Origin: a bacterium
Lineage (GTDB): Bacteria > Patescibacteriota > Patescibacteriia > UBA10025
DNA: 64,000 bases
Assembly (NCBI GenBank): GCA_021815445.1
Contig: JAKAGM010000001.1
Coordinates: forward strand, 3,447 to 67,446
Reading direction: 5' to 3'
Shown: positions 11,823 through 59,553 of the stretch, in pieces
Numbering within the stretch: the first letter of the stretch is position 1
How the letters are laid out: each line of letters begins with the position of its first letter
Notes under the pieces: model-generated
Database searches by the model: none
The model's input: only the letters and a program-made list of their open reading frames with translations
What the model was told of the DNA's origin: nothing
Translations under genes and position numbers: made by a program

Positions 11823-11954
11823 CCACAAAGTACTATGGACACCCCAACACCTCAGCCCACCCCACAATCCTCATCAAGCACAATGATGCGAGTCATTTTG
11901 GTAATCATTCTCATTATCGTCGGCGCGGGCGCTTACTTCTGGTGGCAGAAAGGG
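11815..11954 (+). repeat. 140-bp exact direct repeat, copy 1 (RBS region plus first 40 codons of the paralogous anchored proteins)
   Basis: Identical to 13371-13510 as read by eye: attattaaccacaaagtactatggacacc...ggtggcagaaaggg. Confidence 0.85.
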
Positions 11955-13304
11955 CAAGCAAATACGAACAGTGCGAACCTCGTCCTCAATGCCATGAACC
12001 AGAGTACCAATGCGCCCTCCAACATCAATTCGGTTGCCAACGCGAACACCACCTTGAATACCAATATCGCCGTAAATGCCAATACTCCCGCTAATCTCAA
12101 CACGGCAGTAAACACCAATACTGCGGTAAACTCAAATACCAATACCGCAGTGGATACGAGCGGGTGGCTGGCCGAGACGGCGCGATGCAGTCATGAGCCC
12201 GTATCTCAGCAAAAGGAAAGTATCTTAACTGATAACTCTGACTGGCAAGTCATACGGGTATACAGGGGTGAGCTAAAATTCTCGTACGAAGTACCTTCTA
12301 GTGCAACTTTTAATACCGGTCTGGACAGATATACGAAAACTGGGTCAGAAGAGAGGGAAGTAATATCCGAAGTAAATCTAGAAGGTATGGCTATTGATGT
12401 TAGATGGTATAAAAACAACTCTTCGTTTGAGCTGTGGACTAGGGATCATGAGAATGAGATTTATACTTCCTATATTGCCAGCTCACGTGGCGCGGCAATA
12501 TCGGAACCAGAGCAGATAGTTGTTGATGGACGCAAAACAAAAACATATGAAGTTACGAGTCCTTTTGGGTTTAAGGTAATGCTGGTTTTTGTTGAGGATG
12601 GGGATAAAATATATCAAATAGAGGTTCGGGGGCCAGCGGAGAATATGGAAAACTTCAAAGGGGATATCAATAAAGTATTAATGAGTTTTCACTTTGAAAT
12701 CCCTGATCCAGGTGAATTGATATTTACCTATCGCGAAATTGATCTGTCCTTCAGGTATCCTTCATCCGTCGGCACTCCTCAGCTTGCATGGGGTACCCCA
12801 GTGAATAATAAAAATTGGGAGAAAGCTATGATTGAAGTAGGTCAGAAAGGCCAAAGTGCTTTTTCAATAACACGGGAAGCGGATTATTATAGCTCACATG
12901 AAAATGAGTGGCTGTATACTTTTTACGGGAAAGCGGTCGATGCTAAGCAGCCTCTTTCAGATTTAATCCTTTTTATAAGTAGAGATTTCAAAAATATTCT
13001 CGGTATTTCAAATAAATGTGGTTTCGTTGAGATAGTTGAACTAGACCAATATAATACTCAAACAGCGTTAATTTATCGAGCATTTGTTCCTCATCCTGAT
13101 TATAAGGTTGTATTAGCAACTTTCGTGATAAGTACATCTTTTCCTAATCTTGAAAATAGTAATATTGATCCTAATCTTGTGATAGCCAATGATATGCTCA
13201 ATGACATTAAAATGGGTACATTTCAACAAGATATTATTCAGAATTTAGACACATTTCGTGCGATCTTACCAACAATAAAAACTGCAACACCCCTACCCCG
13301 CTGA
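11835..13304 (+). CDS. Membrane-anchored protein, paralog A: conserved N-terminal anchor, N/T-rich linker, AT-rich unique C-terminal domain
   Basis: N-terminus MDTPTPQPTPQSSSSTMMRVILVIILIIVGAGAYFWWQKG is identical to the next gene. The C-terminal about 370 aa are encoded by markedly AT-rich DNA. Confidence 0.55.
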   Translation: MDTPTPQPTPQSSSSTMMRVILVIILIIVGAGAYFWWQKGQANTNSANLVLNAMNQSTNAPSNINSVANANTTLNTNIAVNANTPANLNTAVNTNTAVNSNTNTAVDTSGWLAETARCSHEPVSQQKESILTDNSDWQVIRVYRGELKFSYEVPSSATFNTGLDRYTKTGSEEREVISEVNLEGMAIDVRWYKNNSSFELWTRDHENEIYTSYIASSRGAAISEPEQIVVDGRKTKTYEVTSPFGFKVMLVFVEDGDKIYQIEVRGPAENMENFKGDINKVLMSFHFEIPDPGELIFTYREIDLSFRYPSSVGTPQLAWGTPVNNKNWEKAMIEVGQKGQSAFSITREADYYSSHENEWLYTFYGKAVDAKQPLSDLILFISRDFKNILGISNKCGFVEIVELDQYNTQTALIYRAFVPHPDYKVVLATFVISTSFPNLENSNIDPNLVIANDMLNDIKMGTFQQDIIQNLDTFRAILPTIKTATPLPR

Positions 13305-13370: not shown

Positions 13371-13510
13371 ATTATTAACCACAAAGTACTATGGACACCC
13401 CAACACCTCAGCCCACCCCACAATCCTCATCAAGCACAATGATGCGAGTCATTTTGGTAATCATTCTCATTATCGTCGGCGCGGGCGCTTACTTCTGGTG
13501 GCAGAAAGGG
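13371..13510 (+). repeat. 140-bp exact direct repeat, copy 2
   Basis: Identical to 11815-11954. Confidence 0.85.
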
Positions 13511-14113
13511 GATACAAAAATAAACACCGCAAACATTGCCATTAATACTACCAATAGGAACACAAATACCGTCTCCAATGCCAATTCGGCTGTGAATACC
13601 AATGTTGCCTCAAATGTCAACACTGCCGCTAATCTCAACACAGCGGTGAATGTGAATGCGGGGGCAAACTTAAACACCAACGCGGCAGTGGATACGAGCG
13701 GGTGGAAGACGTATGAGAATAGCACGTATGGGTACAACATCAAATATCCAACAGACTGGAAGGTAGTTGAGGCCACGGGGATGCTTACAGAATTCTCGCC
13801 CACGAGCAAGGATTATACCGTCGAGGGCTCGATTGCCTACCCCGTGGGGATAACAGGCTATACAGGCGCTGCATCTGATTTCTTAAGTCAGGTGTCGTCA
13901 GATAAGAAGAGTTCAGTAACCATTAATAATCAGGCTGCCACAAAGGTCATAGGATATTCGAATTCAATCTCTTATGTCTTTTCTAATCAGGCGCGAGTGC
14001 AATATCTGGTAATTGGTCCAAATAGCGCGCTGTTAAATAACGTAGATGTTTCAGATCGATCAACAATAGAATCGATGTTTGAGGCAATGCTTCGGACGTT
14101 CACAATTCAATAG
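13391..14113 (+). CDS. Membrane-anchored protein, paralog B, with a different, shorter C-terminal domain
   Basis: Same first 40 aa as paralog A, N/T-rich linker, shared AVDTSGW junction motif, then an unrelated about 140-aa domain. Confidence 0.55.
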   Translation: MDTPTPQPTPQSSSSTMMRVILVIILIIVGAGAYFWWQKGDTKINTANIAINTTNRNTNTVSNANSAVNTNVASNVNTAANLNTAVNVNAGANLNTNAAVDTSGWKTYENSTYGYNIKYPTDWKVVEATGMLTEFSPTSKDYTVEGSIAYPVGITGYTGAASDFLSQVSSDKKSSVTINNQAATKVIGYSNSISYVFSNQARVQYLVIGPNSALLNNVDVSDRSTIESMFEAMLRTFTIQ

Positions 14114-14197
14114 GAGGTAAGAATGCACTTTAACAACTGGTCTACCTGAAGGTCAGATAGAAACCACTATCCAACTCCCAAACTAAAGAGGTGTTAC

Positions 14198-16189
14198 ATG
14201 AGAACTGTAATGGTCGCTCTTGTTGCGCTGGTGCTGTCAGCTACCAGCGCTGTAGCAGTCGATCTAACGGAAACTGGATTTTACTACCCAACTGGCAGCC
14301 ACACATTAGGCAGCTATGCCGGATGGTTAGCAGTTCCGCCAGCTTACTTTGACGGCTACTACCATATCGGCAAAGATATTGACACCGGTGAAGTTGCGCC
14401 TGTGTACGCAATTTCGAATGGCATCGTGATCTACATCAGTTCTGGTGGATGGGGGACGAACAACAAGGGGGTGTTTGTGAGGCACACCCTTGTAGATGGG
14501 TCTCAGTTCGTTGCGCTTTACGGACACGTGAGAACAAGCAAGGTGGTGAATGACGCGGTACAAGCTGGTGTTCAATTTGCGACGATTGGGCCGTGGGATC
14601 CGACACATTTGCATTTTGGCATTCATCCTGGAGGGACTATACCCTCCGATCCATACGGTATGCTACCCTTGCCGGTGACATCGCCGTACAATGGCTGGCA
14701 GGATCCAATCGATTGGATTGCAACGCACAGTCCCGCTGGTGCTTACTCCTGCTCCTTCGTCTCCAAGTCTATCTCGCCTGCCGGTCCGTATGTTCCAGGG
14801 CAGACAGTTACCTGCCAGGTGAAGTTCAAGAACGAGGGTACGGCAACGTGGAGTAAGACAGGCGGCCAGTCGAATTACGTCGAATTGGGATCGTGCGACG
14901 GAAACGGAGGCATCGGCTACAGTTTCTTCAACTATCCCTGCACACTCCCCAATGACGGCCAAGTTCCATCATGGCTGAATTGCAAAGTGCCATGCACCTT
15001 CGTAGAATCCAATGTGCCGCATGGCAGTAATGCGACCTTCAACTTCACGGGTAAGATTAGGGACACGTTACCCAGTACATACAGCGTGTATTTCGGACCT
15101 GTCTGGAATAGCGCAATCATGTCTGGCTGGGTCGGGACGCATTACGCCGTCCAAGTCACCATCCCTGAGTCGTTCTCTACCATGACCCTTACCCCCATCG
15201 CAGGTGATTGGAACGGAGATGGAGTCTCCGAGGTCGGGGTCTATGCCGACGAGACGCAAACCTTCTATCTGGACACCAACAATGACGGGTATACGGAGTT
15301 GGAGCTTCATTACAGCTCAGCCGTAGACAAACCTTTGGCCGGCAACTGGGCTGGCGGCGGGTACTACGGCGTTGGTTTTTACCGTCCCGCCTATCGCACC
15401 TTCTGGCTGGATTATGACAACAACGGCCAGATGGACAATGGCATTGTGTTTGGTGACGGTGGAGACACGCCTTTGGCAGGTGACTGGCTTGGGAACGGCT
15501 ATTCCCGAATTGGCCTATACCGCCCTTCAACCAGGACATTCTGGCTGGACTACGACAACAACGGCACTGCAGACTTTAGCCGTGTCTTTGGAGATGCCAC
15601 GGACATTCCTATCACGGGAGACTGGGACTGTGACTTGGACTGGAACATCGGCGTTTACCGCCCGTCTACCAGGACGTTCTGGTTAGACTACAATAATGAC
15701 GGCTCGGCCGATTTCTCCCGAACCTTCGGAGACGCCGGTGATCTTCCCGTTGTCGGAGACTGGACCGGCAACTGCGGCACCAACATCGGCGTATTCCGCC
15801 CCTCCACCCAGGAATTCTGGCTCGATTACAACAACGACGGAACGGCTGACCGAGGGTTCCAGATCCAACGGATTATTCCCGGTTCGCCTAAGATCACGGC
15901 ACATGGAGAAGACAATACTCTGCCTCGGACATTCTCCCTGTCCCAGAATTACCCGAACCCGTTCAACCCGGGCACGACGATCAGGTACACCTTGCCGAGG
16001 AGTACCCACGTCGTTCTTTCCATCTACAATGTTCTGGGGCAGAAGCTGGAGACTCTGATTGATGAGCACCAGTTCGCCGGAGAGTATATCGCTTTCTGGG
16101 ACGGATCGCGCTTCGCATCGGGCATGTACTTCTACCGCCTCGTCACCGATCAGGCGGTGGAGACAAAAAAGATGATTCTTTTGAAGTAA
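14198..16189 (+). CDS. Secreted multidomain protein: M23-like metallopeptidase domain, 5 VCBS/FG-GAP-like repeats, T9SS-type C-terminal sorting domain
   Basis: Signal peptide. M23 motifs HIGKD (HxxxD) and HLHFGIH (HxH). Five repeats of FWLDYDNNG..DFSRxFGD..D.P..GDW. The C-terminus NYPNPFNPGTTIRY...VVLSIYNVLGQKLETLID...AGEYIAFWDGSRFASGMYFYRL matches the Por-secretion (T9SS) CTD consensus. Confidence 0.6.
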   Translation: MRTVMVALVALVLSATSAVAVDLTETGFYYPTGSHTLGSYAGWLAVPPAYFDGYYHIGKDIDTGEVAPVYAISNGIVIYISSGGWGTNNKGVFVRHTLVDGSQFVALYGHVRTSKVVNDAVQAGVQFATIGPWDPTHLHFGIHPGGTIPSDPYGMLPLPVTSPYNGWQDPIDWIATHSPAGAYSCSFVSKSISPAGPYVPGQTVTCQVKFKNEGTATWSKTGGQSNYVELGSCDGNGGIGYSFFNYPCTLPNDGQVPSWLNCKVPCTFVESNVPHGSNATFNFTGKIRDTLPSTYSVYFGPVWNSAIMSGWVGTHYAVQVTIPESFSTMTLTPIAGDWNGDGVSEVGVYADETQTFYLDTNNDGYTELELHYSSAVDKPLAGNWAGGGYYGVGFYRPAYRTFWLDYDNNGQMDNGIVFGDGGDTPLAGDWLGNGYSRIGLYRPSTRTFWLDYDNNGTADFSRVFGDATDIPITGDWDCDLDWNIGVYRPSTRTFWLDYNNDGSADFSRTFGDAGDLPVVGDWTGNCGTNIGVFRPSTQEFWLDYNNDGTADRGFQIQRIIPGSPKITAHGEDNTLPRTFSLSQNYPNPFNPGTTIRYTLPRSTHVVLSIYNVLGQKLETLIDEHQFAGEYIAFWDGSRFASGMYFYRLVTDQAVETKKMILLK

Positions 16190-16329
16190 TTCCTTTGTGG
16201 GGGAAAGGATTAACTAGCCATCAACCCTTGCGACAACGGTGCTGCAGGGGATTTTTTTATTTAACCTTCGCGATTCTGCGTTCTGTCTACCTCGGTTTGA
16301 GTTATGCACCATTGACTGGTTGAGCGAAA

Positions 16330-16562
16330 CCCTGGTACACTTCATCCACATTAACAACTCATAACAGGTAAGCCGGTGAGATTCCGGCACGGTCCCGCCA
16401 CGGTAATAAATAGTCCGACACCTTTTCGCCCCCTTACGTAGTAAGGAGCGGATAAAGCCAAATCATTCGAGCTTGAGCTCGAGTCCTTCGGGGAAAGGTC
16501 GGACGATACTTGCCTTAGTTTACACTGCAGCGCGGCCTTAGAAGGGAACTAAGGTTTTTTTA
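16330..16562 (+). ncRNA. Cobalamin (AdoCbl) riboswitch with terminator/antiterminator expression platform
   Basis: B12-box core ggtgagattccggcacggtcccgccacggtaa (16373-16404) matches GGTG-AATTCC-GCACGGTCCCGCCAC. It is followed by the hairpin ccttag-aagggaa-ctaagg plus T7 (16536-16561); an upstream copy of ccttagtt (16513-16520) can form the alternative helix. It sits in the 390-bp leader of the DUF4430 gene. Confidence 0.7.
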
Positions 16563-16583: not shown

Positions 16584-17054
16584 ATGGATAAACCTCCAAT
16601 GGTAGTAGTCAAACAAAAAGCAAAAACGAATTATGCGGCACTCGGAATCATCGCCGTCGTGGCGGCCGGCGTATTATTTTTCGGGAATGCCTATAACAAA
16701 GGAGTAACCAATGACGCCCAGAAAGCGGGCGCAGGCGTTGTTGCCGGAGTAGAGTCAGTCCAGCAGGAAGCGACGCTCACCATCAACAACGGCAAAACCA
16801 CCCGCAGTATGGTCATGACCCTCAATCCGGGCGTCTCTGCGCTTGATCTCGTCATCCGGGCGGGAATGAGGGAAAACTTTACAGTCGAAACGAAGAAATA
16901 TGACTTCGGGACCATCGTCGAATCTATCGACGGCGTGCGCGGCGGCGACCAGAAGAAATACTGGCTGTACTATGTGAACGGCAAACAGGCGACAGTCGGC
17001 GCGGATGCGTACAAAGTGCAATCCGGGGATACCATAGACTTCAGATTCGAATAA
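16584..17054 (+). CDS. Membrane-anchored DUF4430-like (transcobalamin C-terminal-domain-like) putative cobalamin-binding protein
   Basis: N-terminal TM anchor, about 100-aa beta domain ending in ...GDTIDFRFE. To my recollection DUF4430 is the transcobalamin/intrinsic-factor beta domain and occurs in B12-uptake loci. It is controlled by the riboswitch. Confidence 0.5.
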   Translation: MDKPPMVVVKQKAKTNYAALGIIAVVAAGVLFFGNAYNKGVTNDAQKAGAGVVAGVESVQQEATLTINNGKTTRSMVMTLNPGVSALDLVIRAGMRENFTVETKKYDFGTIVESIDGVRGGDQKKYWLYYVNGKQATVGADAYKVQSGDTIDFRFE

Positions 17055-17059
17055 TTTCC

Positions 17060-17584
17060 ATGAAAAAAAAGTACTCCATTGCCGTAGCTCTCGCATTGAT
17101 TCTGGTCGGGATGGCCGTCCGTCTCCTTCCGCATCCGGCCAATTTTACCCCCCTTGCCGCAATAGCGCTTTTTTCCGGCGTGTATCTTCCCCGCAGGTTT
17201 GCTCTCGTTGTGCCTCTCGCCGTGATGGTGGCTTCTGATGCGTTGATTGGCTTTCACAACCTCGTACTCTTTACCTGGGGATCCTTCGCGCTGATCGGAG
17301 TGATCGGCTGGTGGGTACAAAAGCATAAGCACGTCACTACGGTCATCGGCGGGGCGCTTGCCGGGTCTCTGCTCTTTTACCTCGTGACTAACTGGGCCGT
17401 GATGCAATTCGGGACTATGTACCCGCACACCATCTCGGGATTACTTGGCTCGTATGCTGCGGGGATACCTTTTTTCCGCAACATGCTTCTCGGAGACCTT
17501 TTTTACACGTCGACCTTTTTCGGGGCCTATGAATTGGCTGAGCGGCTGGGCGTGCGGATAGGAGCCCGCGCAGAAATTCGGTAA
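17060..17584 (+). CDS. Small 6-TM membrane protein, ECF-transporter S-component-like; putative cobalamin permease
   Basis: 174 aa, about 6 TM helices; co-transcribed with the DUF4430 gene (6-nt gap) behind the cobalamin riboswitch. Family assignment by topology and size only. Confidence 0.4.
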   Translation: MKKKYSIAVALALILVGMAVRLLPHPANFTPLAAIALFSGVYLPRRFALVVPLAVMVASDALIGFHNLVLFTWGSFALIGVIGWWVQKHKHVTTVIGGALAGSLLFYLVTNWAVMQFGTMYPHTISGLLGSYAAGIPFFRNMLLGDLFYTSTFFGAYELAERLGVRIGARAEIR

Positions 17585-21007: not shown

Positions 21008-22357
21008 TTAGAGCAACGACAGGCACTGGTCGAGCTCATAATTCGTCACCGCTGTGCGGTAGCCGTCCCACTCGTGGCGTTTATTGTCAACCAGCGAGCC
21101 ATGAATGTGCGGGCCAAGCGTCTCCTGCATCAACGTGCTTGCCTCGAAGAGATCCGTTGCTTCGGCCAGACTGCCCGGAAGCGATCCGATGCCATGCTCT
21201 TTCAGCTCCGCTGTAGTCATTTCGAAGATGTTCTGTTCGATGGGCTCCGGCAGCTTATAACCTTTGTCGATTCCATCAAGTCCAGCGGCGAGCATGCAGG
21301 CGAAGGCGAGGTACGGGTTGCACGCCGGGTCGGCTGAACGAAGCTCGATGCGCGTGGCTTTTTCTTTCCCGACACGGTACATCGGCACGCGGACGAGCGA
21401 CGAACGATTTCTGCGTCCCCACGAGATGTAGACGGGCGCCTCATATCCTGCCACAAGGCGCTTATACGAATTCACCCACTGGTTGAGCACAAGCGTCATT
21501 TCGCGGACATGGGTGAGAATCCCGGCCATGAAAGAGCGCGCCAGTGCGGAGAGATTGTAGGGATCATCGGGATCGAAGAAGGCATTCTTGTCGCCTTTGA
21601 AGAGCGACATATGCGTGTGCATCCCGGAGCCGTTCTGGCCGAAGATCGGTTTGGGGATGAAGCTTGCATACGCACCTGCTTCAAGCGCGAGCTCTTTCAC
21701 CACAAACCTGTAGAGCATCGCGAAGTCAGCCATTGTTGATGCCTCCTGATATCGGAGGTCGATCTCGTGCTGGGAAGGGGCGACTTCATGATGAGAACAC
21801 TCGACCGGAATGCCGATTGCCTCCAGAGAAACCACGGCTTTTTTGCGCAGTCTGGTGCCCTCGTCCACTGTCGAGTAATCGAAGTACCCGCCACTGTCGA
21901 GGGGCGTGGTCCCGTGAGCGTCGCGAAAATAGAAGTACTCGATTTCCGGACCGCAATTGAATTTGTAGCCGCGGTCCGAGGCCTTCTTCAGGACACGCCT
22001 CAGAACCTGGCGAGGATCGCCATGGTAAGGAGTGCCGTCGGGATTGCAGATATCGCAGAACATCAAGGCGATCTTTTCCCCGCCGATTTCCCAGGGGATA
22101 ATCCGAAACGAGTGGAGGTCGGGCATTGCCATCAAGTCAGATTCTTCGATGCGGACAAACCCCTCGACGGAAGAGCCGTCAAAACCCTGTCCCTCTTCCA
22201 GAACTGTCTCCATTTCACTGCGAGTGATCGACATTCCCTTCATCTGGCCGAGAATGTCAGTGAACAGAAGGCGCACGTACCTAATCTTGTTCGTGTCGAG
22301 CGCATCGCGCGCCTGCTGCGAGTTGGTCACTTCGCGTTGTTGTGTACCCTGTTCCAT
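21008..22357 (-). CDS. glnA: Glutamine synthetase type I
   Basis: 449 aa with a GS beta-grasp N-domain and catalytic C-domain motifs (KPIFGQNGSGMHTHMSLF, NPYLAFA). Confidence 0.85.
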   Translation of the reverse strand: MEQGTQQREVTNSQQARDALDTNKIRYVRLLFTDILGQMKGMSITRSEMETVLEEGQGFDGSSVEGFVRIEESDLMAMPDLHSFRIIPWEIGGEKIALMFCDICNPDGTPYHGDPRQVLRRVLKKASDRGYKFNCGPEIEYFYFRDAHGTTPLDSGGYFDYSTVDEGTRLRKKAVVSLEAIGIPVECSHHEVAPSQHEIDLRYQEASTMADFAMLYRFVVKELALEAGAYASFIPKPIFGQNGSGMHTHMSLFKGDKNAFFDPDDPYNLSALARSFMAGILTHVREMTLVLNQWVNSYKRLVAGYEAPVYISWGRRNRSSLVRVPMYRVGKEKATRIELRSADPACNPYLAFACMLAAGLDGIDKGYKLPEPIEQNIFEMTTAELKEHGIGSLPGSLAEATDLFEASTLMQETLGPHIHGSLVDNKRHEWDGYRTAVTNYELDQCLSLL

Positions 22358-22810: not shown

Positions 22811-23909
22811 ATGAACGAGATTATTGGGCAACTCAAAGAGCTTCAAAACAAAATCGCCCAGACCTGGGGGTTTCTTTGACCTGGACCAGACGCGGCAAAA
22901 AATCGGCGAACTGGAAAGTGAAGTAAGCGAACCGGATTTTTGGAAGGACACGAAGCACGCCAAGGCGAAAAGCCAGGAGCTCGACGAGCTCAAGGAAGAA
23001 GTTTCGCGTTGGGAGGCAATCAAAAAAGACGTTGATGACCTTGTCGACCTATCTTCGCTGGCCCACAAAGAGCACGATGAGTCCATACGCGGCGATGTCG
23101 AGAAAAAGTTCGCCGAAGTGACTAAACGCTTCAGGGAGCTTGAGTTTTACATCATGTTTTCCCAGAAGTACGATAAACGGAACGCGATTCTCGCTATCCA
23201 CGCCGGCGCAGGCGGGACGGATTCTCAAGACTGGGTCGCTATGCTTCTTCGGATGTATCTGCGTTTCTGCGAACGCAAGGGGTGGGTGGTAAAAATAGTC
23301 GATGAATCGTTCGGACAGGAAGCGGGCATCAAGAGCGTCACCATGGAAATCCACGGCCGATGGGCGTACGGACATCTGCGTTCTGAAGCGGGTGTACACA
23401 GGCTGGTGCGCATTTCACCGTTCGACGCTGAGAAGATGCGCCACACCTCGTTCGCGCTCGTTGAAATCCTGCCGGAGCTTGAAGAGCTTGAGGAGGTCAA
23501 GATTGACGACAAAGATCTCCGCATAGACACTTTTATGTCGTCGGGGAAGGGCGGACAAAGTGTCAATACGACGTACTCGGCGGTGCGCATCGTCCATATC
23601 CCGACCGGCATCATGGTTTCGTGCCAGAATGAGCGCTCTCAGCTCCAAAACAAAGCAACAGCGATGAAAATCCTCAAAAGCAAGCTGTATAAAATTACTC
23701 TTGAGAAACAGCAGGAAGAAAAACAGCAGTTGCGCGGCGAGTACCAATCGGCCGAGTGGGGGAGCCAGATACGTTCGTACGTGCTCCAGCCCTACCAGAT
23801 GGTGAAAGACCACCGGACAAAATACGAGGAGAATAATCCGGACGAGGTATTGAACGGGAAGCTGGAAGGGTTCATCGAAAGCTACTTGCGCTGGAAGGTG
23901 AAGAAATAG
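22811..23909 (+). CDS. prfB: Peptide chain release factor 2 with programmed +1 ribosomal frameshift
   Basis: ORF0 MNEIIGQLKELQNKIAQTWGFL ends at CTT TGA C (22874-22880) and is preceded by the SD-like GGGGG. The +1 frame continues DLDQTRQKIGELESE... and carries the RF2 GGQ motif (SGKGGQSVNTT). Confidence 0.9.
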
Positions 23910-29253: not shown

Positions 29254-29784
29254 ATGTCGCGGCCCTTTCACTTACACGTAGAAGAAGGATATTATTTTCT
29301 TACTGCTCGGACTCAGCAAGGATACCCGTTTTTACATAGCCAAAATGCCAAAAGAATTCTCTTAGGATCAATTGAACAATCGGTTCAACAATGCACGATT
29401 AAACTTTTTGCGTGGGTAATAATGGATAATCATTACCACATTCTTATCGGTACCGATAGGGGGCAAAGAATACAACAGCTTATGCAGCTGATTCATGGAA
29501 GAAGCTCAAGACGTCTACGAAAGTTTAATCAAACGGAGGGCAGACTGATCAGTCTGCCCTCCACGGGGTGGAAAGTCTGGCAAAATTACTGGGACATATG
29601 TATCCGTGATGAGGCAGATTTCTTTACCCACCTGAACTATATCCACCACAACCCGGTCAAGCACGGATTAGTGAGAAGGATGGAGGACTACCCATTTTCA
29701 AGCTATAGACAATACGTTCAAACAGAGGGTTCTCAGTGGCTCGACAGCTCCTTTGAGACTTATCCCGTCATTGACTTTACATAG
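29254..29784 (+). mobile_element. IS200/IS605-family Y1 transposase / REP-associated tyrosine transposase (RAYT)-like gene
   Basis: HYHIL (HxH) motif plus C-terminal ...YIHHNPVKHGLV...DYPFSSYRQY (catalytic Tyr region) in an AT-rich segment. No flanking IS ends were identified. Confidence 0.6.
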
Positions 29785-35224: not shown

Positions 35225-38200
35225 ATGCTACGACGGTATCTCTTTTTTACCGCAGTGTTTGGCGCGATAGCCATCGCGATAAGCATTTTTGCTGTGCCTG
35301 TCGGCCATGCTGCTTACGGTGATACGTCAACATTTATAGGTCAAATCTATGCCGGGGATGGCGGTCAGGTGCTGGACGCGTACTTTGATTTTCCTGATGA
35401 CATGATCCTTGATGCATCCGGAAATTTTCTCATCGCCGATACGTATAACAATGTCGTTCGGAAAGTGGACGGCTCGGGTATCGTGAGCACGATGGCCGGC
35501 ACGGGGTCGACGGGATTCATTAACGGTGCGAGCGGGTCAGCCGAATTTTATCAGCCGCGGGCGCTTGTCGCCGCTGCGAACGGCGATATCTACGTTGCTG
35601 ATTCCGCGAACAACGCCGTGCGAAAAATAAGCGGAGGAATTGTTTCCACCGTAGTTTCATCGGGGCTGAATTCGCCTCTGGGGCTCGCACTTGCCGGTAC
35701 GGCACTCTATATCTCTGATTCAGGAAACAATGCAATCAAGTACGTGAGCACGAGCGGAGGCGCCGTCACTACGTTGGCGACTGGCGTGAATGATCCCCGT
35801 AAACTTATCGTCAGCGCCGACGGTTCAAAACTTTATGTTGCTGATAACGGGAATCACCGTGTTGTTTCCATTGCACTGCCCGGAGGAGCCGTCACGGTTG
35901 TCGCCGGGTCGGGAACGTCAGGGTATGTCGAAGGAACCGGCACGGCTGCCCAATTCCAAAATGTCTGGGGGCTTGTCCAGGATGGAACGACACTCTACGT
36001 CACCGATCATGACGGGCTGGTGACTGACAGGATTCGCACTATTAATTTAAATACCGGGACGACCGGCCTTTTTGCCTTTGACCAGTACCAGCGCACAATG
36101 CTCTACCCCGGGGCCCTTGTCATAAAAGATGGTTACCTCTACGCGATGATGACCGGTAGAGGCACCATTCAACGATTTCTCCTTACTGATTCCGCTACGA
36201 CAGACCACTTCGGAGGTGTGGAGGCCTTCAGCGACACGATAGGCACCAACGCATTGGTGGGCAGGCCGCTTGATTTGACGTTGTCTCCCGACGGGAAGTA
36301 CGTGTACTTTTCCGAGAACAACAAGGTACGGAAGTTTGATGCGACCACGGGCGAGGTGCTCACCGTGCTTGGCTCCATTACTGACGGGTACCGTGAAGGC
36401 ACGGATGCGTACCCGAGTCCCATGAGATTCAGCGGGCCTTTTGGCATCACCGTGAACTCCACAGGCACGCGGCTGTATGTCGCCGACAGGAACAATAACA
36501 GGATCCGGGGAGTGCTTCTTGACGCGACTCCAATTTCTTCGTTCCTGGTGAGCGGAGCCGGGTTGACGAATACGACCGGCACGCAGGACAACGGCTACCA
36601 GGAGGGCGTGAAGTGCGAAGGAGAACTTGCCCAAGGGGTGTCAGGATGCGCGTATTTCAAAAATCCTGCGGGTATAGTCATTGACCCGACAAACACGTAT
36701 CTCTATGTCACCGATACGGGGAATAACCGCGTGAGGAGAGTCCGCATCTCCGACGGCCAAACTTCACTCATAGCCGGATCCGGGACAGCGGGATTTGCCG
36801 ACGGCGCCGGTTCCGCGGCAAAATTCAACCGGCCATTCGGGATAGCGATTGATTCGGCGGGCAAATTCCTCTATATCGCCGATTCAAACAATCATCGCAT
36901 TCGCAAGATTGACCTTGCTACCAATACAGTCTCGACATTGATCGGAACCGGGGCCCTCGGCTACGCCAATGCAACCCCGTTGAATTCAGTGCTCTCGTAT
37001 CCCGAATATGTCGATGTCACCAGTAATGGCAATGTGTATTTTACCGAAGCGGGCTCCCAGCGCATCCGTGTGTTTGATATTGCCGCAAACGCAGTCAAGC
37101 TTGTCGCCGGCTCCGGCACCCGCGGCTTCCTCAATGGCGCCGCGTCGGTGGCGAAGTTTAACAATCTCAAGGGGCTCGCAGTAGATACTCAAAAGAACAA
37201 GATTTTTGTCGCAGATTCCTGGAACGACCTCATTCGCGCCGTCAATATTACCGGAGATATTCCGTATACTGACCCGGCTCCCGAGGTTGCGGCTGTATCA
37301 CCGAAAAACGTCAATCCCGCGTGGAACACCGGGTCGGGCCTTAAAGTCCAAATCACGGGAAAAAACTTTCGGTATAACGCGACTGTATTGTTTGGAAACT
37401 TCACTGCTGAGAAGACATGGGTAGTGTCGGGGACTGCGATAGTTGCGCAGCTCCCGCTTTCAAAGATGTCCCCTGGAATCTATGACGTCACCGTTCGTGA
37501 AGCTGACGGGCAGGAAGCGACGCTGGAAAAAGGGTTCAATCTTACGCAGACAAATAATGCTCTCTCAACCACCTACTTTGCCTATGCGGGAAAGAAGCAG
37601 GCGAACATTGCCGTGGCGCCGGGAAGTTCTTTCTTTGCTTTCTCCTCAACGTTGAGAGGAGGTTTCAATGTTACCTCGGGAAATGTGGCCGGGGACAGCA
37701 AAAGCGAAATCATTGTCGGGACGGGAAACGGTATGAATCCCGAAATCCGTGTTTTCACGAATGGAGGAAAACTTCTCAGCGCGTTTGCACCGTATAGCCC
37801 CTCCATTAAGTCGGGCGTGCGCCTCTATGTCTGCGATGTGAATGGCGACGGGGCGAAGGATATAGTCACAGTCCCCGGGCCGGGCGCTGCACCGCTCGTC
37901 AAAGTATTTTCGGGCGAGGGAAAATTGGAGTCAAGTTTTTCCGCGCTCGACGGAAAGTTTAAAGGCGGCGCGTTCTTGGCCTGCGGAGATGTGAATGGCG
38001 ACGGTGTCAGCGATATAGTCGTATCCGCGGGAAAAGGCGGGGGGCCACATGTCACCGCGCATTCGTCCTCCGGCAAAATCATAGCGAACTTTTTCGCTTA
38101 TGATAAAAATTTCCGAGGAGGCATCAGGGTCGCTACGGCAGATATTGACGGTGACGGCAAGGAAGAAATCATTACCGGGCCCGACAACGGCGCGCCGCAC

Positions 38201-38551
38201 ATACAGACATTCCAGTTCCGTTCAGGGATCGTCAAGCGCCTCAATCCCGGGTGGTTCGTATTTTCCCGTGATTATCGCGGAGGGGTTTCAGTCGCGGGAG
38301 CCGATGTCGACGGAGACGGGTCAAAAGAAATCATCGTCGGGGTAGGGGACAATGCGACGCCCCTGGTGAAAGTGCTCAACAAGAGCGGTACGCTTGTGAA
38401 ACAATTCTATGCTTTTGCCACGACCTTCTTGGGCGGTGTCAATATAGGCGGTGGCGATGTCGACGGTGACGGGCTGGACGAAGTTCTTGTGCTTCCTAGA
38501 AGCGGGGGAGGGCCGAATCTCCGGATTATCAATGTCGAACAGTTGAAGTAA
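35225..38551 (+). CDS. Giant secreted protein: NHL-repeat beta-propellers plus IPT/TIG-like segment plus FG-GAP/VCBS (integrin-alpha-like) repeats
   Basis: Signal peptide; many NHL-type repeats (YVADxxNNRIRKI, NNRVRRV, NHRIRKID); C-terminal DVNGDGxxDIV / DIDGDGKEEII / DVDGDGSKEII repeats. Confidence 0.6.
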   Translation: MLRRYLFFTAVFGAIAIAISIFAVPVGHAAYGDTSTFIGQIYAGDGGQVLDAYFDFPDDMILDASGNFLIADTYNNVVRKVDGSGIVSTMAGTGSTGFINGASGSAEFYQPRALVAAANGDIYVADSANNAVRKISGGIVSTVVSSGLNSPLGLALAGTALYISDSGNNAIKYVSTSGGAVTTLATGVNDPRKLIVSADGSKLYVADNGNHRVVSIALPGGAVTVVAGSGTSGYVEGTGTAAQFQNVWGLVQDGTTLYVTDHDGLVTDRIRTINLNTGTTGLFAFDQYQRTMLYPGALVIKDGYLYAMMTGRGTIQRFLLTDSATTDHFGGVEAFSDTIGTNALVGRPLDLTLSPDGKYVYFSENNKVRKFDATTGEVLTVLGSITDGYREGTDAYPSPMRFSGPFGITVNSTGTRLYVADRNNNRIRGVLLDATPISSFLVSGAGLTNTTGTQDNGYQEGVKCEGELAQGVSGCAYFKNPAGIVIDPTNTYLYVTDTGNNRVRRVRISDGQTSLIAGSGTAGFADGAGSAAKFNRPFGIAIDSAGKFLYIADSNNHRIRKIDLATNTVSTLIGTGALGYANATPLNSVLSYPEYVDVTSNGNVYFTEAGSQRIRVFDIAANAVKLVAGSGTRGFLNGAASVAKFNNLKGLAVDTQKNKIFVADSWNDLIRAVNITGDIPYTDPAPEVAAVSPKNVNPAWNTGSGLKVQITGKNFRYNATVLFGNFTAEKTWVVSGTAIVAQLPLSKMSPGIYDVTVREADGQEATLEKGFNLTQTNNALSTTYFAYAGKKQANIAVAPGSSFFAFSSTLRGGFNVTSGNVAGDSKSEIIVGTGNGMNPEIRVFTNGGKLLSAFAPYSPSIKSGVRLYVCDVNGDGAKDIVTVPGPGAAPLVKVFSGEGKLESSFSALDGKFKGGAFLACGDVNGDGVSDIVVSAGKGGGPHVTAHSSSGKIIANFFAYDKNFRGGIRVATADIDGDGKEEIITGPDNGAPHIQTFQFRSGIVKRLNPGWFVFSRDYRGGVSVAGADVDGDGSKEIIVGVGDNATPLVKVLNKSGTLVKQFYAFATTFLGGVNIGGGDVDGDGLDEVLVLPRSGGGPNLRIINVEQLK

Positions 38552-43231: not shown

Positions 43232-43641
43232 TGGTGGAGATGAGGGGAATTGCACCCCTGTCCAATATACGAACCAGTCAACGTCTCCAAGCTATCCTAT
43301 TTTAGCGTGGTCGATGGCAGAAGTCAAAATAGGAAAAAGGTCCTGCCATCCGAGTCTCGTGGTACGGCCGGGAGCAAGAGACACGCTCGTCGGTCGTCCT
43401 CCGTTTGTGACACCTCCGACCTTCTCAGGAGGAATCAGAAGGGGAGATGGTTATCGGTTTTTACGCGACAACAGGCGCAAAGGAAGGCGCAAATACGCTT
43501 GCAAGTGCGGTCTTCGCTTTGCTTACAAATGATTTGGCATTTGTCTAATTGGAGCCAGTTTAACGTCATGAACTGCCGTGGACGGCTTGCAGTTGAGATG
43601 GCAATGTACACTGTCGATTATAAGCATCCCCATGATGCGCC
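43232..43641 (-). ncRNA. ssrA: tmRNA (ssrA)
   Basis: Minus strand 5' end GGGGATGCTTATAATCGACAG... pairs with the 3' end ...AGGGGTGCAATTCCCCTCATCTCCACCA. The acceptor stem has the G3:U70 Ala-identity pair, with T-arm and encoded CCA. It is located 25 nt downstream of smpB on the same strand. Confidence 0.8.
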
Positions 43642-43665: not shown

Positions 43666-44109
43666 TCAGTAGTCCAGCGCTTGCCTGATCCGCCGGTCAA
43701 CCTCGCGTTTCTTAATGGTTTCGCGCTTATCCTGTTTCTTCTTCCCGCGCGCCAAACCCAGCTCAACCTTGATCAAGCTACCCTTAGTATAGACAGAAAG
43801 CGGAATAAGTGTCAAGCCTGCCGAAGCCATCTTCCCGATCAATGATTTGATGTCCTCACGCTTCACAAGCAGCTTCTTTTCTCGGTCAGGATCCTCGTGG
43901 GATTCTTTCGAAGCACGCTGGTATCTCGCTATATGGCAGCCGATCAGCCAGAGTTCATTGCCGCGCATGCTCACATAACTTCCCATCAGAGTACAGTTGC
44001 CCAGCTTGACCGACTTTACCTCTGCGCCTCTCAATACAATACCGGCCTCAATTTTTTCGAGGATTGTGTAGTTGAAATAGCCTTTTTTGTTCTTAGCGAG
44101 GGTAGGCAT
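43666..44109 (-). CDS. smpB: SsrA-binding protein SmpB
   Basis: Motifs GIVLRGAEVKS, GYVSMRGNELWL and the basic C-terminal tail KKKQDKRETIKKREVDRRIR. Confidence 0.9.
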   Translation of the reverse strand: MPTLAKNKKGYFNYTILEKIEAGIVLRGAEVKSVKLGNCTLMGSYVSMRGNELWLIGCHIARYQRASKESHEDPDREKKLLVKREDIKSLIGKMASAGLTLIPLSVYTKGSLIKVELGLARGKKKQDKRETIKKREVDRRIRQALDY

Positions 44110-56538: not shown

Positions 56539-59500
56539 GTGTACTTCCCTGATATGGAAGCACCACAAAAGCCCGTAAAAACCCGCGCGTCTGTTCCAAA
56601 CTTCCCCAAACTTGAGGAAGGCGTTTTAGATTTTTGGGATAAAGAGCGGATTTTCCAAAAGACGCTCGAAAAGACGGCCGGCGGAAAACGGTTTGTTTTC
56701 TTTGAAGGCCCGCCGACAGCGAACGGATTGCCCGGCATCCACCATGTGATTGCGCGTGCGTTTAAAGATATTATCGTCCGGTACAAAGCGCTCCGCGGTT
56801 TTTTTGTCGAGCGCAAAGCCGGCTGGGACACGCACGGCCTGCCTGTGGAAATCCAAGTCGAGAAAGCGCTGAAACTTTCCGGGAAAAAACAGATCGAGGA
56901 CTACGGGATAGAAAAGTTTAACGCGAAATGCAAAGAGAGCGTTCTGGAATACAAAAAAGAGTGGGAAACGCTCACCAAGCGCATCGGATTTTGGCTCGAT
57001 ATGGAGCATCCATACATGACCTATACGAATGATTACATCGAATCGCTCTGGTGGCTTATCAGGCAGATTTGGAGCAAAGGGCTGCTCTATAAAGGACACA
57101 AGGTAGTCCCGCACTGTCCGCGTTGCGGTACGGCGTTATCGAGCCACGAAGTGGCGCAGGGATATAAGGATGTGACTGAAGATTCTGTCTTTGTGAAATT
57201 CGAGGTAAAAAATCCAGAAAGGGTTGGGATGAAGGGCCCATTATTTATTCTTTCATGGACGACTACACCGTGGACACTGCCGGGGAATGTTGCGCTTGCG
57301 GTGGGAGCGGATATTAAATATGTTGCAGTCACGATTGGTAGTGAAACATATATTCTTGCTGAGGACAGGGTTAGTTCGGTAATTGAATTTCCACTTGGGA
57401 AAAAACTTGAGTCAGAAAAACCCTTAGACCCGAGCACAAAAATACAAAAGGGCTTAAAAGGAAAAGATCTCGTCGGACTGGAGTATGAACCCCTCTATCC
57501 AGTAATCCCCCTCGAAGGAAAAAAAGCCTATTACGTCGCTCCGGCAGACTTTGTAACCACTGATGAGGGAACGGGCGTGGTGCATACCGCTGTCATGTAC
57601 GGCGAAGATGACTACACTCTCGGAGAAAAGCTTGATTTGCCTAAGCATCATACAGTTCACCGCGACGGTACATTCACCGACGAATTGCCAAAATGGAAAG
57701 GCATGTTTGTCAAAGATGCCGAGAAAGATATTATTGAGGATCTCCGTTCACGAGGCCTACTTTATAATGCGGTTTCGCATACACATTCATACCCCTTTTG
57801 CTGGCGATGCGGCACGCCGCTTCTCTATTACGCGAAAGACAGCTGGTTTATCGCGATGTCAAAGCTTCGTGAACAACTGGTGGCGAATAACCAGCAGATC
57901 AACTGGGTTCCGTCACATATTAAAGATGGCCGGTTCGGAGAATGGCTCAAAGAGGTGAAAGATTGGGCATTCTCGCGCGAACGGTATTGGGGGACACCAT
58001 TACCTATTTGGGAGTCAGCTAACGGCGAAAAAATCTGTGTCGGTTCATACGAGGAACTCCGTTCCTTAGCGAAAGACAAATCATTGGTGGGGGAGACATT
58101 TGACCCTCATAGGCCGTTTGTCGATAACATAACTCTCGTCAAAAATGGTAAAGAATATACACGCGTGAACGAAGTCATCGACGTGTGGTTTGATTCGGGA
58201 TCGATGCCGTTTGCCCAGTGGCACTACCCGTTCGAAAACGCTGAGCGGGTTGACGGCGGACTCAGTTTTCCCGCCGACTATATTTCAGAAGCGATTGACC
58301 AGACGCGGGGATGGTTTTATACCCTTCTCGCAATTTCCACATTACTCGGCAAGGGCGCTCCGTATAAAAACGTCATCTGCCTCGGGCATATTTTAGATGA
58401 AAAAGGCCAGAAGATGTCGAAGTCAAAAGGAAACATCTTGAAACCGTACGACGTGATTGATACATACGGGGCTGACCCGCTCCGCATGTATCTCGCCACG
58501 ATGAACCCGCCGGGCGAACCGAAGCGGTTCGATACCAAAGGACTTGATGAAGTGGTCAAAAAATATTTCTTTACGCTCTGGAATGTCACTGAGTTCTATT
58601 TGCTGTATGCTAGCCATGGTCCGGCAGCCGAGATTAAGCCGGTGGACGTTCTCGACAGGTATATCCTTGCGCGGCTGGCACAGCTCGTGGAGCAGGCGAC
58701 ACGGGCATTTGACGCGTTCGATGTCTATACAGTCGGCCGGAAACTGATGGAGTTCGCCACGGAGCTGTCCACGTGGTACGTGAGACGGTCGCGGGAACGG
58801 TTCAAACATGGCGGCGAGGAAGCCCAGCAGGCTGTCAGCACATTGGGGAAGGTGCTCAAAACCCTCGCGCAACTTATGGCCCCATTAACGCCGATGTACG
58901 CCGATATTATCTGGAAAAAACTCGATCCACAGGCAGTTTCCGTGCACTTGAGTTCGTGGCCGGAAAGCGGGGGAGACGCAGATGAGGATTTACTCGATGC
59001 CATGGAAACAGTGCGCCTCGTCAGCGAGCTTGGGCATGCCCTGAGAGCCGAACACGCTTTGCGCGTACGCCAGCCATTGCCGCAGTGCGTGCTCATCGGC
59101 AAACGGATTCCCGACGCATTTATCCGCCTCGTGGCAGAAGAGCTTAATGTAAAAGAGGTTAACTTTGGCACCAAGGCTCCTACAGGCACAGAGTTCGCCA
59201 AAAAAGAATCTGGCGGACTCACCGTGGTTCTCGATACCACCATCACTGACGAACTGCTCCAGGAAGGGATGCTGCGAGACATCATTCGCCATATCAATGC
59301 CCAACGCAAAGCACTCGGTTTTACACTTGCAGACACCGCGTGTATCACGTACGTTACGGAAGATGAAGATATTGTGAAACTCCTCGAACACTTTACCGAT
59401 GTATTACTCAAAGACACGCTGTCGTCTACGCTGCAGCATGCCGAGTCCGAGGAAAAGCTCGCCGGCGCCGGTGAGCCGCTCAAGGTGAAATACGGCACTG

Positions 59501-59553
59501 TGCGTTTTGGGTTGGAGAAAATTGCCGAAGCTTCATCCCGCTCAAACAGCTGA
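56539..59553 (+). CDS. ileS: Isoleucine--tRNA ligase (type 2, about 1000 aa)
   Basis: HIGH-region PPTANGLPGIHHV, KMSKSKGN, CP1 editing domain; no long C-terminal zinc-finger extension. Confidence 0.9.
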   Translation: MYFPDMEAPQKPVKTRASVPNFPKLEEGVLDFWDKERIFQKTLEKTAGGKRFVFFEGPPTANGLPGIHHVIARAFKDIIVRYKALRGFFVERKAGWDTHGLPVEIQVEKALKLSGKKQIEDYGIEKFNAKCKESVLEYKKEWETLTKRIGFWLDMEHPYMTYTNDYIESLWWLIRQIWSKGLLYKGHKVVPHCPRCGTALSSHEVAQGYKDVTEDSVFVKFEVKNPERVGMKGPLFILSWTTTPWTLPGNVALAVGADIKYVAVTIGSETYILAEDRVSSVIEFPLGKKLESEKPLDPSTKIQKGLKGKDLVGLEYEPLYPVIPLEGKKAYYVAPADFVTTDEGTGVVHTAVMYGEDDYTLGEKLDLPKHHTVHRDGTFTDELPKWKGMFVKDAEKDIIEDLRSRGLLYNAVSHTHSYPFCWRCGTPLLYYAKDSWFIAMSKLREQLVANNQQINWVPSHIKDGRFGEWLKEVKDWAFSRERYWGTPLPIWESANGEKICVGSYEELRSLAKDKSLVGETFDPHRPFVDNITLVKNGKEYTRVNEVIDVWFDSGSMPFAQWHYPFENAERVDGGLSFPADYISEAIDQTRGWFYTLLAISTLLGKGAPYKNVICLGHILDEKGQKMSKSKGNILKPYDVIDTYGADPLRMYLATMNPPGEPKRFDTKGLDEVVKKYFFTLWNVTEFYLLYASHGPAAEIKPVDVLDRYILARLAQLVEQATRAFDAFDVYTVGRKLMEFATELSTWYVRRSRERFKHGGEEAQQAVSTLGKVLKTLAQLMAPLTPMYADIIWKKLDPQAVSVHLSSWPESGGDADEDLLDAMETVRLVSELGHALRAEHALRVRQPLPQCVLIGKRIPDAFIRLVAEELNVKEVNFGTKAPTGTEFAKKESGGLTVVLDTTITDELLQEGMLRDIIRHINAQRKALGFTLADTACITYVTEDEDIVKLLEHFTDVLLKDTLSSTLQHAESEEKLAGAGEPLKVKYGTVRFGLEKIAEASSRSNS

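Follow-up and report, generated by a model that had tools for sequence, protein, structure and literature searches.

A predicted M23 peptidase with a type IX secretion-type sorting domain, and its conserved partner gene, in a Patescibacteria genome

The window analysed here is a 64,000-nucleotide stretch of contig JAKAGM010000001.1 (assembly GCA_021815445.1), from a bacterium placed in the lineage Patescibacteriota; Patescibacteriia; UBA10025. It encodes a 663-aa protein, hereafter the target, in which a predicted Sec signal peptide and an M23 metallopeptidase domain are followed by a beta-sandwich, a five-bladed propeller and a C-terminal sorting domain (CTD) of the kind that belongs to a type IX secretion system (T9SS). 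The target gene and its flanking signals are laid out as follows.

14198..16189 (+): target M23-CTD gene, an open reading frame (ORF) of 663 aa with an ATG start
14185..14193 (+): Shine-Dalgarno-like AAAGAGGTG, with a GAGG core 6 nt 5' of the ATG, read from the sequence
14198..14257 (+): predicted Sec signal peptide, residues 1-20, MRTVMVALVALVLSATSAVA with VD following the cleavage point, from inspection of the translation by eye
14354..14659 (+): M23 (LytM-type) metallopeptidase domain, residues ~53-154, from PF01551 and aligned motifs
14738..15172 (+): middle beta-sandwich, residues 181-325, from an AlphaFold2 (AF2) model; no Pfam family
15185..15877 (+): five FG-GAP/VCBS-like repeats, residues ~330-560, from the repeat pattern and the AF2 propeller
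15878..15946 (+): flexible linker, residues 561-583, GSPKITAHGEDNTLPRTFSLSQ, with AF2 predicted local distance difference test (pLDDT) values <50
15947..16189 (+): predicted type A T9SS CTD, residues 584-663, and stop codon, from TIGR04183 and PF18962
16225..16262 (+): terminator-like hairpin CCCUUGCG...UGCAGGG followed by a U-run, from the minimum free energy and centroid folds

By inspection, the predicted signal peptide has a charged n-region, a hydrophobic core and an AXA-type cleavage site; its residues have low AF2 confidence, as expected for a signal peptide. The full-length AF2 model was made from a 142-sequence alignment and has a mean pLDDT of 80. The hairpin on the 3' side may part the target gene from the downstream operon, a weak suggestion given that a pattern scanner made no call there and the fold z-score was not significant. 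Proteins of relatives are numbered P0002-P0008, and loci of the family and its relatives L002-L019; P0002 is a paralog encoded on the same contig.

The predicted CTD is called from its sequence (two hidden Markov models (HMMs), identity and conserved columns) and not from its fold. TIGR04183, the T9SS type A sorting domain of NCBIfam, matches residues 585-660 of 663 with a score of 42.9 bits (E=3.4e-11), where the curated cut-off is 23, and PF18962 Por_Secre_tail reaches 31.1 bits (gathering score 27). The motif of the domain is YPNPF...IYN.LGQ...SGMYFYRL...KKM.LLK. The target CTD shares 47-64% full-length identity with more than 100 CTDs, including ones annotated as T9SS type A sorting domains from Ignavibacteria, KSB1 and Zixibacteria, and in an alignment with the 119 closest CTDs it keeps each of the 7 invariant and each of the 14 near-invariant columns. 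The nearest named CTDs outside the family come from KSB1, Ignavibacteria, Zixibacteria, Bacteroidetes and one organism labelled Chloroflexi, and none is labelled Patescibacteria. The domain occupies the extreme C-terminus, preceded by a stretch (563-588) that is disordered in the AF2 model; in a T9SS host, the linker before the CTD is the place of the CTD cleavage site. An earlier sequence-only reading of this DNA, which had placed the gene at 14198-16189 and a T9SS CTD, recognisable from a quoted C-terminal string, at its end, is borne out on each count: the ORF has exactly these coordinates, the string is present at residues 584-648, and TIGR04183 run on the C-terminus gives a match well above its cut-off, so that the refuting outcome which the reading had named (no TIGR04183 match) did not arise.

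Modelled by itself, the CTD forms a seven-strand Ig-like sandwich (pLDDT 91.2), for which Foldseek finds the mirolase CTD 8qb1, the translocon-bound Flavobacterium johnsoniae chains 8gl8_D, 8glk_D and 8gl6_D, and PorZ 5m11, with TM-scores of 0.53-0.64. Because generic Ig-like sandwiches (GbpA, DUF3244 and FlgD) score like true CTDs in the same search (E ~2e-3 to 3e-2), the fold alone does not discriminate a CTD, and a phmmer search of the CTD against the PDB gave only E=0.34, to 8glj_D. Both results would be expected if the domain were a generic sandwich that resembles a T9SS CTD by chance or convergence. Two independent curated models passed, however, and neither the full-length identity to so many CTDs nor the extreme C-terminal position after a flexible linker is in keeping with such a resemblance; at the sequence level this explanation is effectively refuted, and we consider it barely credible.

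The catalytic domain is likewise complete. PF01551 Peptidase_M23 matches residues 55-146 at 36.0 bits (gathering score 28.7), and the zinc-binding and catalytic residues are all present, as H56-IGK-D60 (HxxxD), H110 and H137-L-H139 (HxH). All five residues (H56, D60, H110, H137 and H139) are unchanged across six family members, and they align, with the HxxxD and HxH motifs matched, to the zinc and catalytic residues in alignments with the solved M23 peptidases 9gy1, 8s3m (LysTt72) and LytM 2b44, at low similarity to the PDB chains (E 1e-6 to 0.04). The domain also matches metallo-endopeptidase and endolysin families of PHROG. The middle sandwich is all-beta (AF2 pLDDT ~80-90) and belongs to no Pfam family; it shares 61-67% identity with the corresponding domains of P0006 and P0008 but only 26-34% with those of P0005 and P0007, and eight metagenome loci (L011-L018) match this domain only.

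Five 46-residue repeats start at residues 336, 382, 428, 474 and 520, have the pattern G[DN]W..G......G.YRPS...FWLDY.N.G.AD, and are modelled as a five-bladed beta-propeller with four strands per blade at pLDDT >95. PF13517, PF01839 and PF13519 have no match to the target protein at E<=1, but the repeats are homologous to repeats of P0005 (BLASTP E=8e-22) that are positive for PF13517 and PF01839, and the relatives P0005-P0008 are positive for PF13517. A Foldseek search with the full-length model is dominated by generic propeller and Ig-domain matches and adds little; its beta-propeller matches include the FG-GAP-type lectin PVL (4up4). The M23 peptidase named in the sequence-only reading therefore has its Pfam match and its full set of residues, and the accompanying label of VCBS protein stands as far as homology to FG-GAP-positive repeats and the propeller fold are concerned, without backing from the Pfam models themselves. 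In many other proteins the same type of repeat module is fused to SpoIID, amidase, CHAP, NlpC/P60, C1, S8 and M10 domains, and this association with wall hydrolases and proteases suggests, by analogy, that the propeller may have a wall- or glycan-targeting role. Judged from its sequence, the target is probably a catalytically complete, Sec-exported peptidoglycan hydrolase that carries a misplaced T9SS-type tag. The secreted lytic factor proposed in the sequence-only reading is plausible in view of the intact M23 catalytic residues.

The organism that encodes this protein belongs to the Patescibacteria, or Candidate Phyla Radiation (CPR). The only names among the best 120 matches of its isoleucyl-tRNA synthetase (IleRS; 56539..59553) are Patescibacteria/CPR ones, the best named being Ca. 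Kerfeldbacteria at 61% identity, and the set of genes is in keeping with a bacterium of small genome: FtsA/FtsZ, NrdR, a class II ribonucleotide reductase, ComEC, tmRNA/SmpB, and L20/L35/IF3. Many membrane-anchored proteins with Asn-rich linkers are encoded in the window. The target gene lies on ENA contig ERZ27237554:k141_1660939 of 877,264 bp, which has a sister contig of 881,187 bp; the target protein was found on seven contigs that were read, in essentially the same neighbourhood, and the size table lists one block of 50-200 kb and seven of 0.2-1 Mb. This genome of ~0.88 Mb has genes for aconitase and isocitrate dehydrogenase (L002 1..2072, at ~178-180 kb of the record) and for glutamine synthetase (window 21008..22357, minus strand), which amount to more central metabolism than many CPR genomes keep.

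A T9SS was looked for in two parts of the contig (record positions 7875-73230 and 157966-180545), together ~88 kb or ~10% of its length. Among the genes called there, none belongs to the Pfam families of T9SS machinery (GldK/L/M/N or PorK/L/M/N, SprA/Sov, PorV and PorU) or of outer-membrane biogenesis. A local HMM built from 120 CTDs and run with filters off against the window, L002, L008 and L009 (~92 kb, every ORF in all six frames) found only the target and one paralog. T9SS organisms typically carry dozens of CTD proteins. Two other apparently exported products of the window are without a CTD: a large protein of 1108 aa with faint NHL, FG-GAP and SGL propeller matches (35225..38551, plus strand) and one of 661 aa with CLIPPER and faint NPCBM_assoc matches (60350..62335, plus strand); surface proteins of this genome are thus not generally tagged. 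The T9SS has been described as confined to the Bacteroidota (PMC10202324, PMC11611037) or to the Fibrobacteres-Chlorobi-Bacteroidetes (FCB) superphylum (PMC11205867), and Patescibacteria are described as lacking an outer membrane in passages of PMC7137472, citing cryo-EM work, and of PMC12102498. A literature search combining T9SS with Patescibacteria or Candidate Phyla Radiation returned no paper that links T9SS-type CTDs to the CPR. We infer that a T9SS is absent from the whole genome.

These observations bear on the possibility that the lineage is exceptional, truly possessing an outer membrane as well as a translocon that is a T9SS or resembles one, with the target as ordinary cargo. The CTD is canonical in sequence and fold and is under selection (see below), and the inspected part is only ~10% of the contig, all of which would suit such a host. 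Its IleRS is nonetheless that of Patescibacteria, a group published as lacking an outer membrane in the cryo-EM and genomic work cited above; its genome has only ~0.88 Mb; the system itself is described only from Bacteroidota or the FCB group, and the inspected regions yielded two CTD proteins and no T9SS or outer-membrane family. We consider a T9SS-bearing host very unlikely. The sequence-only reading had judged the rest of the window to be unlike Bacteroidota, which the IleRS confirms, and had offered a choice between an FCB-related organism with a T9SS and horizontal acquisition of the gene; the first option is not supported, given the IleRS and the search of ~10% of the contig, and the second is favoured by the evidence presented below.

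The target gene is preceded by two copies of a partner gene.

11835..13304 (+): partner-gene paralog A, 489 aa, with an N-terminal transmembrane helix, an Asn-rich linker and a larger extracytoplasmic domain
13391..14113 (+): partner gene B, 240 aa, with a transmembrane anchor, an Asn-rich linker and a PsbP_2-like globular domain ('VDTSGWKTYENSTYGYNIKYPTDW'); directly upstream of the target

The first ~40 residues of partners A and B are identical (MDTPTPQPTPQSSSSTMMRVILVIILIIVGAGAYFWWQKG) and their C-terminal domains differ (489 versus 240 aa in total length). A further partner (L002 9231..9959) belongs to a second cassette at a distance of ~150 kb, and its N-terminus is almost identical to theirs; this sharing among the three suggests that the anchor module was recently duplicated or gene-converted. 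Wherever upstream sequence suffices, a partner gene lies directly upstream of the M23-CTD gene: in the window (as two tandem copies) and at L002, L003, L004, L005, L006, L010 and L019. Members of the partner family have a transmembrane anchor, an Asn/Ala-rich linker and a domain that opens with W..Y/F....G[FY].[IF].YP..W. PF18933 PsbP_2 matches the partner of L006 at 37.7 bits, above its gathering score of 27, and those of L004 and L003 just below it (25.4 and 23.7 bits); the window copies are too divergent for PF18933, and the partner at 13391..14113 has only a faint PsbP match (E=0.24). The partner and M23-CTD genes form a conserved two-gene cassette, and the conserved partner is newly recognised here, beyond the sequence-only reading.

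The simplest reading of the partner, though a doubtful one, is that it may confer cognate immunity or act as an accessory protein. A diderm donor would have it facing the periplasm, through which the enzyme must pass, and a monoderm would have it facing the wall. The family is small, with about ten members from a search of 5.8 billion proteins, and a metagenome scan found one true family locus, L010. On this short JGI contig (1..2794) an M23-sandwich-FG-GAP gene is followed by a partner gene and then by the start of another M23 gene, a gene order which indicates that cassettes can form tandem arrays.

Within its genome the cassette is an outlier in codon usage. When the amino-acid sequences of 38 window genes were kept and their synonymous codons redrawn from usage pooled over the window, ranks 1-3 of 38 in synonymous codon deviation went to the cassette genes: 11835..13304 at z=9.1, the target at z=4.6 and 13391..14113 at z=2.8. 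Partner paralog A also has a low G+C content (0.416). Across hosts, the target gene has a G+C content of 48-54% with flanks of 33-57%; at L006 the gene has 48% and its flanks 33-40%. Some 13 kb downstream of the cassette is an IS200/IS605-type Y1 transposase gene (PF01797; window 29254..29784, plus strand; 176 aa), whose G+C content of 0.435 is low in comparison with the sequence around it.

By sequence the target is a domain mosaic of its relatives, with these closest counterparts: P0005 and P0007 for the M23 domain (67 and 63% identity), P0008 and P0006 for the middle domain (67 and 61%), P0002, P0004 and P0003 for the repeats (82, 62 and 59%), and for the CTD the paralog P0002 (75%) followed by P0006 (64%). 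P0006 is encoded on a 1.29-Mb contig titled 'uncultured Ignavibacteriales bacterium', of the FCB group; its gene is bordered on one side by a large serine recombinase, an integrase and a relaxase, and on the opposite side by restriction-modification genes. A scan of GTDB-representative genomes with the single target protein found no match, and a genome scan with a three-sequence alignment matched only the Ignavibacteriales-titled contig. At L003, L005 and L006 the cassette is flanked by homologous large serine recombinases of the phage-integrase type (36-52% identity). The mobile/defence island of P0005 contains a second CTD protein (L005 1219..3579, minus strand; 786 aa), with a Rax2/DUF5122 beta-propeller and a FlgD_ig/Por_Secre_tail C-terminus; its gene is bracketed by those for LexA and an integrase, and beyond the cassette come SMODS, TIR and restriction-modification genes. 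Horizontal acquisition is favoured by the codon outliers, the domain mosaicism, the relative in an Ignavibacteriales-titled mobile island and the FCB-type nearest CTDs.

The integrases at three loci, together with the PHROG endolysin and metallo-endopeptidase matches of the M23 domain and the Foldseek match to the phage lysin LysTt72, might suggest that the cassette is a prophage lysis module, composed of an M23 endolysin and a membrane protein. No relative was found, however, in the viral contigs of IMG/VR or in the 50,697 phage genomes of INPHARED; a signal peptide combined with a secretion-type CTD is unlike the layout of an endolysin, and the neighbours in the window and at L002 are housekeeping genes without phage structural genes among them. 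This reading was rejected as highly improbable. Plasmid matches were to single domains only: the CTD in Salinibacter, Rhodothermus and Chondrinema, and the repeats in Kitasatospora and Planctomycetes.

The second copy of the cassette, at L002 on the same contig and likewise new with respect to the sequence-only reading, is surrounded by genes for S2, EF-Ts, L31 and RF1. Its M23-CTD protein, P0002, has 859 aa; the N-terminal half differs from that of the target, and the repeats, linker and CTD are common to both. Nucleotide identity between the two genes is 98.6% in the linker and 92% in repeat 1 but falls to 66-70% in repeats 2-3, an uneven distribution that points to gene conversion between the two copies. 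These findings also bear on whether the deviating composition of the cassette might reflect an artefact of assembly or binning, in which a fragment of an FCB genome was joined into a Patescibacteria contig. Such a chimera is rejected, with next to no probability left to it, on the recurrence of the neighbourhood on seven contigs, on the second copy amid ribosomal protein, EF-Ts and RF1 genes ~150 kb away, and on the conversion tracts that link the copies; nor does it accord with the identical N-terminus that the partner genes share with each other and with the L002 copy.

The CTDs of the target and P0002 differ with a rate of nonsynonymous substitution (dN) of 0.174 and of synonymous substitution (dS) of 0.68, for a ratio (omega) of 0.26 by the Nei-Gojobori method, and those repeats in which dS is unsaturated have dN/dS of 0.03-0.22. 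An omega of 0.26 relative to the paralog indicates purifying selection, and hence a CTD that is not in decay here, although some of the divergence between the two may be older than their acquisition.

We consider it reasonably probable that a mobile two-gene cassette, whose CTD architecture derives from the FCB group, entered this Patescibacteria genome, and that the CTD is not a working T9SS signal here. Its first gene would encode a membrane-anchored, outward-facing PsbP_2-like protein, and its second a Sec-exported M23-sandwich-propeller-CTD enzyme. The CTD architecture would most likely have been assembled in FCB-group bacteria, in which the CTD would have carried cargo across the outer membrane; the cassette would then have entered a Kerfeldbacteria-related genome, which now has two diverged copies that apparently still swap sequence. 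We infer this direction of transfer. Since an outer membrane is reportedly lacking in this phylum, the signal peptide should suffice to place the enzyme outside the cell, presumably by Sec alone, and the CTD would not be expected to serve as a T9SS signal. It may persist as a folded C-terminal sandwich with a secondary role, or the cassette may keep moving among lineages that need it. The enzyme would most likely cut peptidoglycan cross-links, with the propeller and the sandwich as targeting modules and the partner in the supporting part suggested above.

Several points weigh against this account. The absence of a T9SS is drawn from ~10% of the contig and from published knowledge of the phylum, which are consistent with absence and do not prove it. 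The CTD-only homologue search yielded only short proteins and fragments (<=151 aa), a biased sample of the nearest CTDs. The G+C content of the target gene (0.54, and 0.63 at third codon positions) is inside the range of the window, so that the transfer, if any, was not very recent. The name Ignavibacteriales comes solely from the title of a record; the family could be mainly patescibacterial and the transfer reversed. Finally, the purifying selection on the CTD of two co-resident copies argues for a function in this genome, which a pure relic model fails to explain.

The last two points are the core of an alternative in which the CTD works as a sorting or anchoring signal in Patescibacteria by a route other than the T9SS, such as retention by the wall or S-layer, or a dedicated processing peptidase; the family would be native to the CPR and the Ignavibacteriales copy would be the transferred one. 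Selection on the CTD, with all of its conserved positions kept, would fit this alternative, as would the recurrence of an Asn-rich linker after a transmembrane anchor in other predicted membrane proteins of the window, the chance that most family loci are from CPR genomes, and the mobile island around the copy in the Ignavibacteriales-titled genome. It does not account for the closest named CTDs outside the family, which are all FCB except the Chloroflexi one and in no case patescibacterial, nor for the deviant codon usage of the cassette in this genome, for the finding of only two CTD ORFs in ~92 kb, or for the lack of literature found on such CTDs in the CPR; we regard it as rather unlikely. 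A more speculative proposal is that the patescibacterium lives on a T9SS-bearing, Ignavibacteriales-type host, the CTD being selected for capture or anchoring of the lytic enzyme by T9SS parts of the host surface (the PorV shuttle, or attachment by PorU to anionic lipopolysaccharide, A-LPS), or at least that the cassette marks a specific pair of CPR bacterium and host; its probability appears slight.

With acquisition of the cassette from the FCB group as the preferred account, the target can be compared with known systems. It is like the type A cargo of the T9SS, represented by the mirolase CTD of Tannerella forsythia (8qb1), the RemA and NucA CTDs of F. johnsoniae on SprA-PorV (8gl6 and 8glk) and PorZ of Porphyromonas gingivalis (5m11), in having a signal peptide and a seven-strand C-terminal sandwich of ~80 residues that follows a flexible linker and passes both HMMs; metallopeptidases are a common class of T9SS cargo (PMC11205867). 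It is unlike them in its host, a patescibacterium from a phylum described as lacking an outer membrane and with no reported T9SS, and in that ~92 kb show two CTD proteins instead of dozens. In this context, use of the CTD as a T9SS signal is unlikely. With M23 peptidases of the LytM/lysostaphin type (LytM 2b44, 9gy1 and LysTt72 8s3m) the target shares the HxxxD and HxH zinc ligands, the extra catalytic His, the size and the all-beta fold of the domain, but it is fused to a sandwich, a propeller and a CTD, whereas those enzymes carry wall-binding modules of the SH3b or LysM type. Its propeller resembles those of FG-GAP/VCBS proteins (PF13517, PF01839; PVL 4up4) in that repeats with GDxxGDG-type loops build the blades, and differs in having five blades of 46 residues instead of the usual seven and in the silence of the Pfam models.

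For the function of the enzyme, we favour an accessory, interaction-related role, directed at the wall of the organism itself, of a host or of a competitor, because the gene is located in mobile or defence islands at three loci and because cultured Patescibacteria live as epibionts. In cultured Ca. Southlakia epibionticum, peptidase and lysozyme homologues are essential for epibiotic growth, as cited in a passage of PMC12102498. The target is similar to these hydrolases, compared by their description in that passage, in being a predicted secreted wall hydrolase from a phylum with cultured members that live on other cells; it differs in having no linkage to a type IV secretion system locus, and neither a CTD nor a partner gene is described in the passage.

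Several other features of the window concern regulation and translation. At gathering score, an Rfam scan of the window found one tRNA and the tmRNA only. Just under the gathering score of 31.5, a candidate cobalamin riboswitch (RF00174; 30.7 bits, E=3.6e-6) lies at 16309..16443 on the plus strand, upstream of genes for DUF4430 (16584..17054) and DUF6580 (17060..17584) proteins, and suggests that these two genes are a B12-regulated uptake operon in a reduced genome. The gene prfB for release factor 2 (22811..23909, plus strand) has a classical programmed +1 frameshift: frame 0 encodes MNEIIGQLKELQNKIAQTWGFL and stops at CTT TGA C (22874), after which the +1 frame continues with DLDQTRQ. Because of this frameshift, the TTG-initiated prfB ORF of 361 aa and the called gene are mis-started, and the frameshift site shows that this organism reads UGA as a stop codon. 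For a tag peptide, the one encoded by the tmRNA (43232..43631, minus strand), AKSFVSKAKTALASVFAPSFAPVVA, seemed unusually long. A gene for SmpB, called in L008, follows ~2.5 kb downstream of the tmRNA, at about 43666..44109 of the window on the minus strand.

T9SS-type CTDs are routinely taken as a genomic proxy for T9SS-dependent secretion. The target has the looks of T9SS cargo but probably does not behave as such in this host; of the features that define the family, the doubtful one is the context, a T9SS in the same genome. Because a canonical CTD under selection is found in a phylum with no expected means of using it, annotations of the kind 'T9SS type A sorting domain-containing protein' cannot be taken as evidence of a T9SS. 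By sequence the protein belongs to the known M23 and type A CTD families, here in an unexpected phylum, and it introduces no new mechanism. Its relatives constitute a small and rare family of mobile M23 hydrolase cassettes, with a conserved membrane-anchored partner that is a candidate for an immunity or accessory role towards a secreted wall hydrolase, with shuffling of domains, and with apparent crossing between the FCB group and Patescibacteria. If it is true that such exchange reflects physical association, it could point to the hosts of this uncultured CPR lineage.

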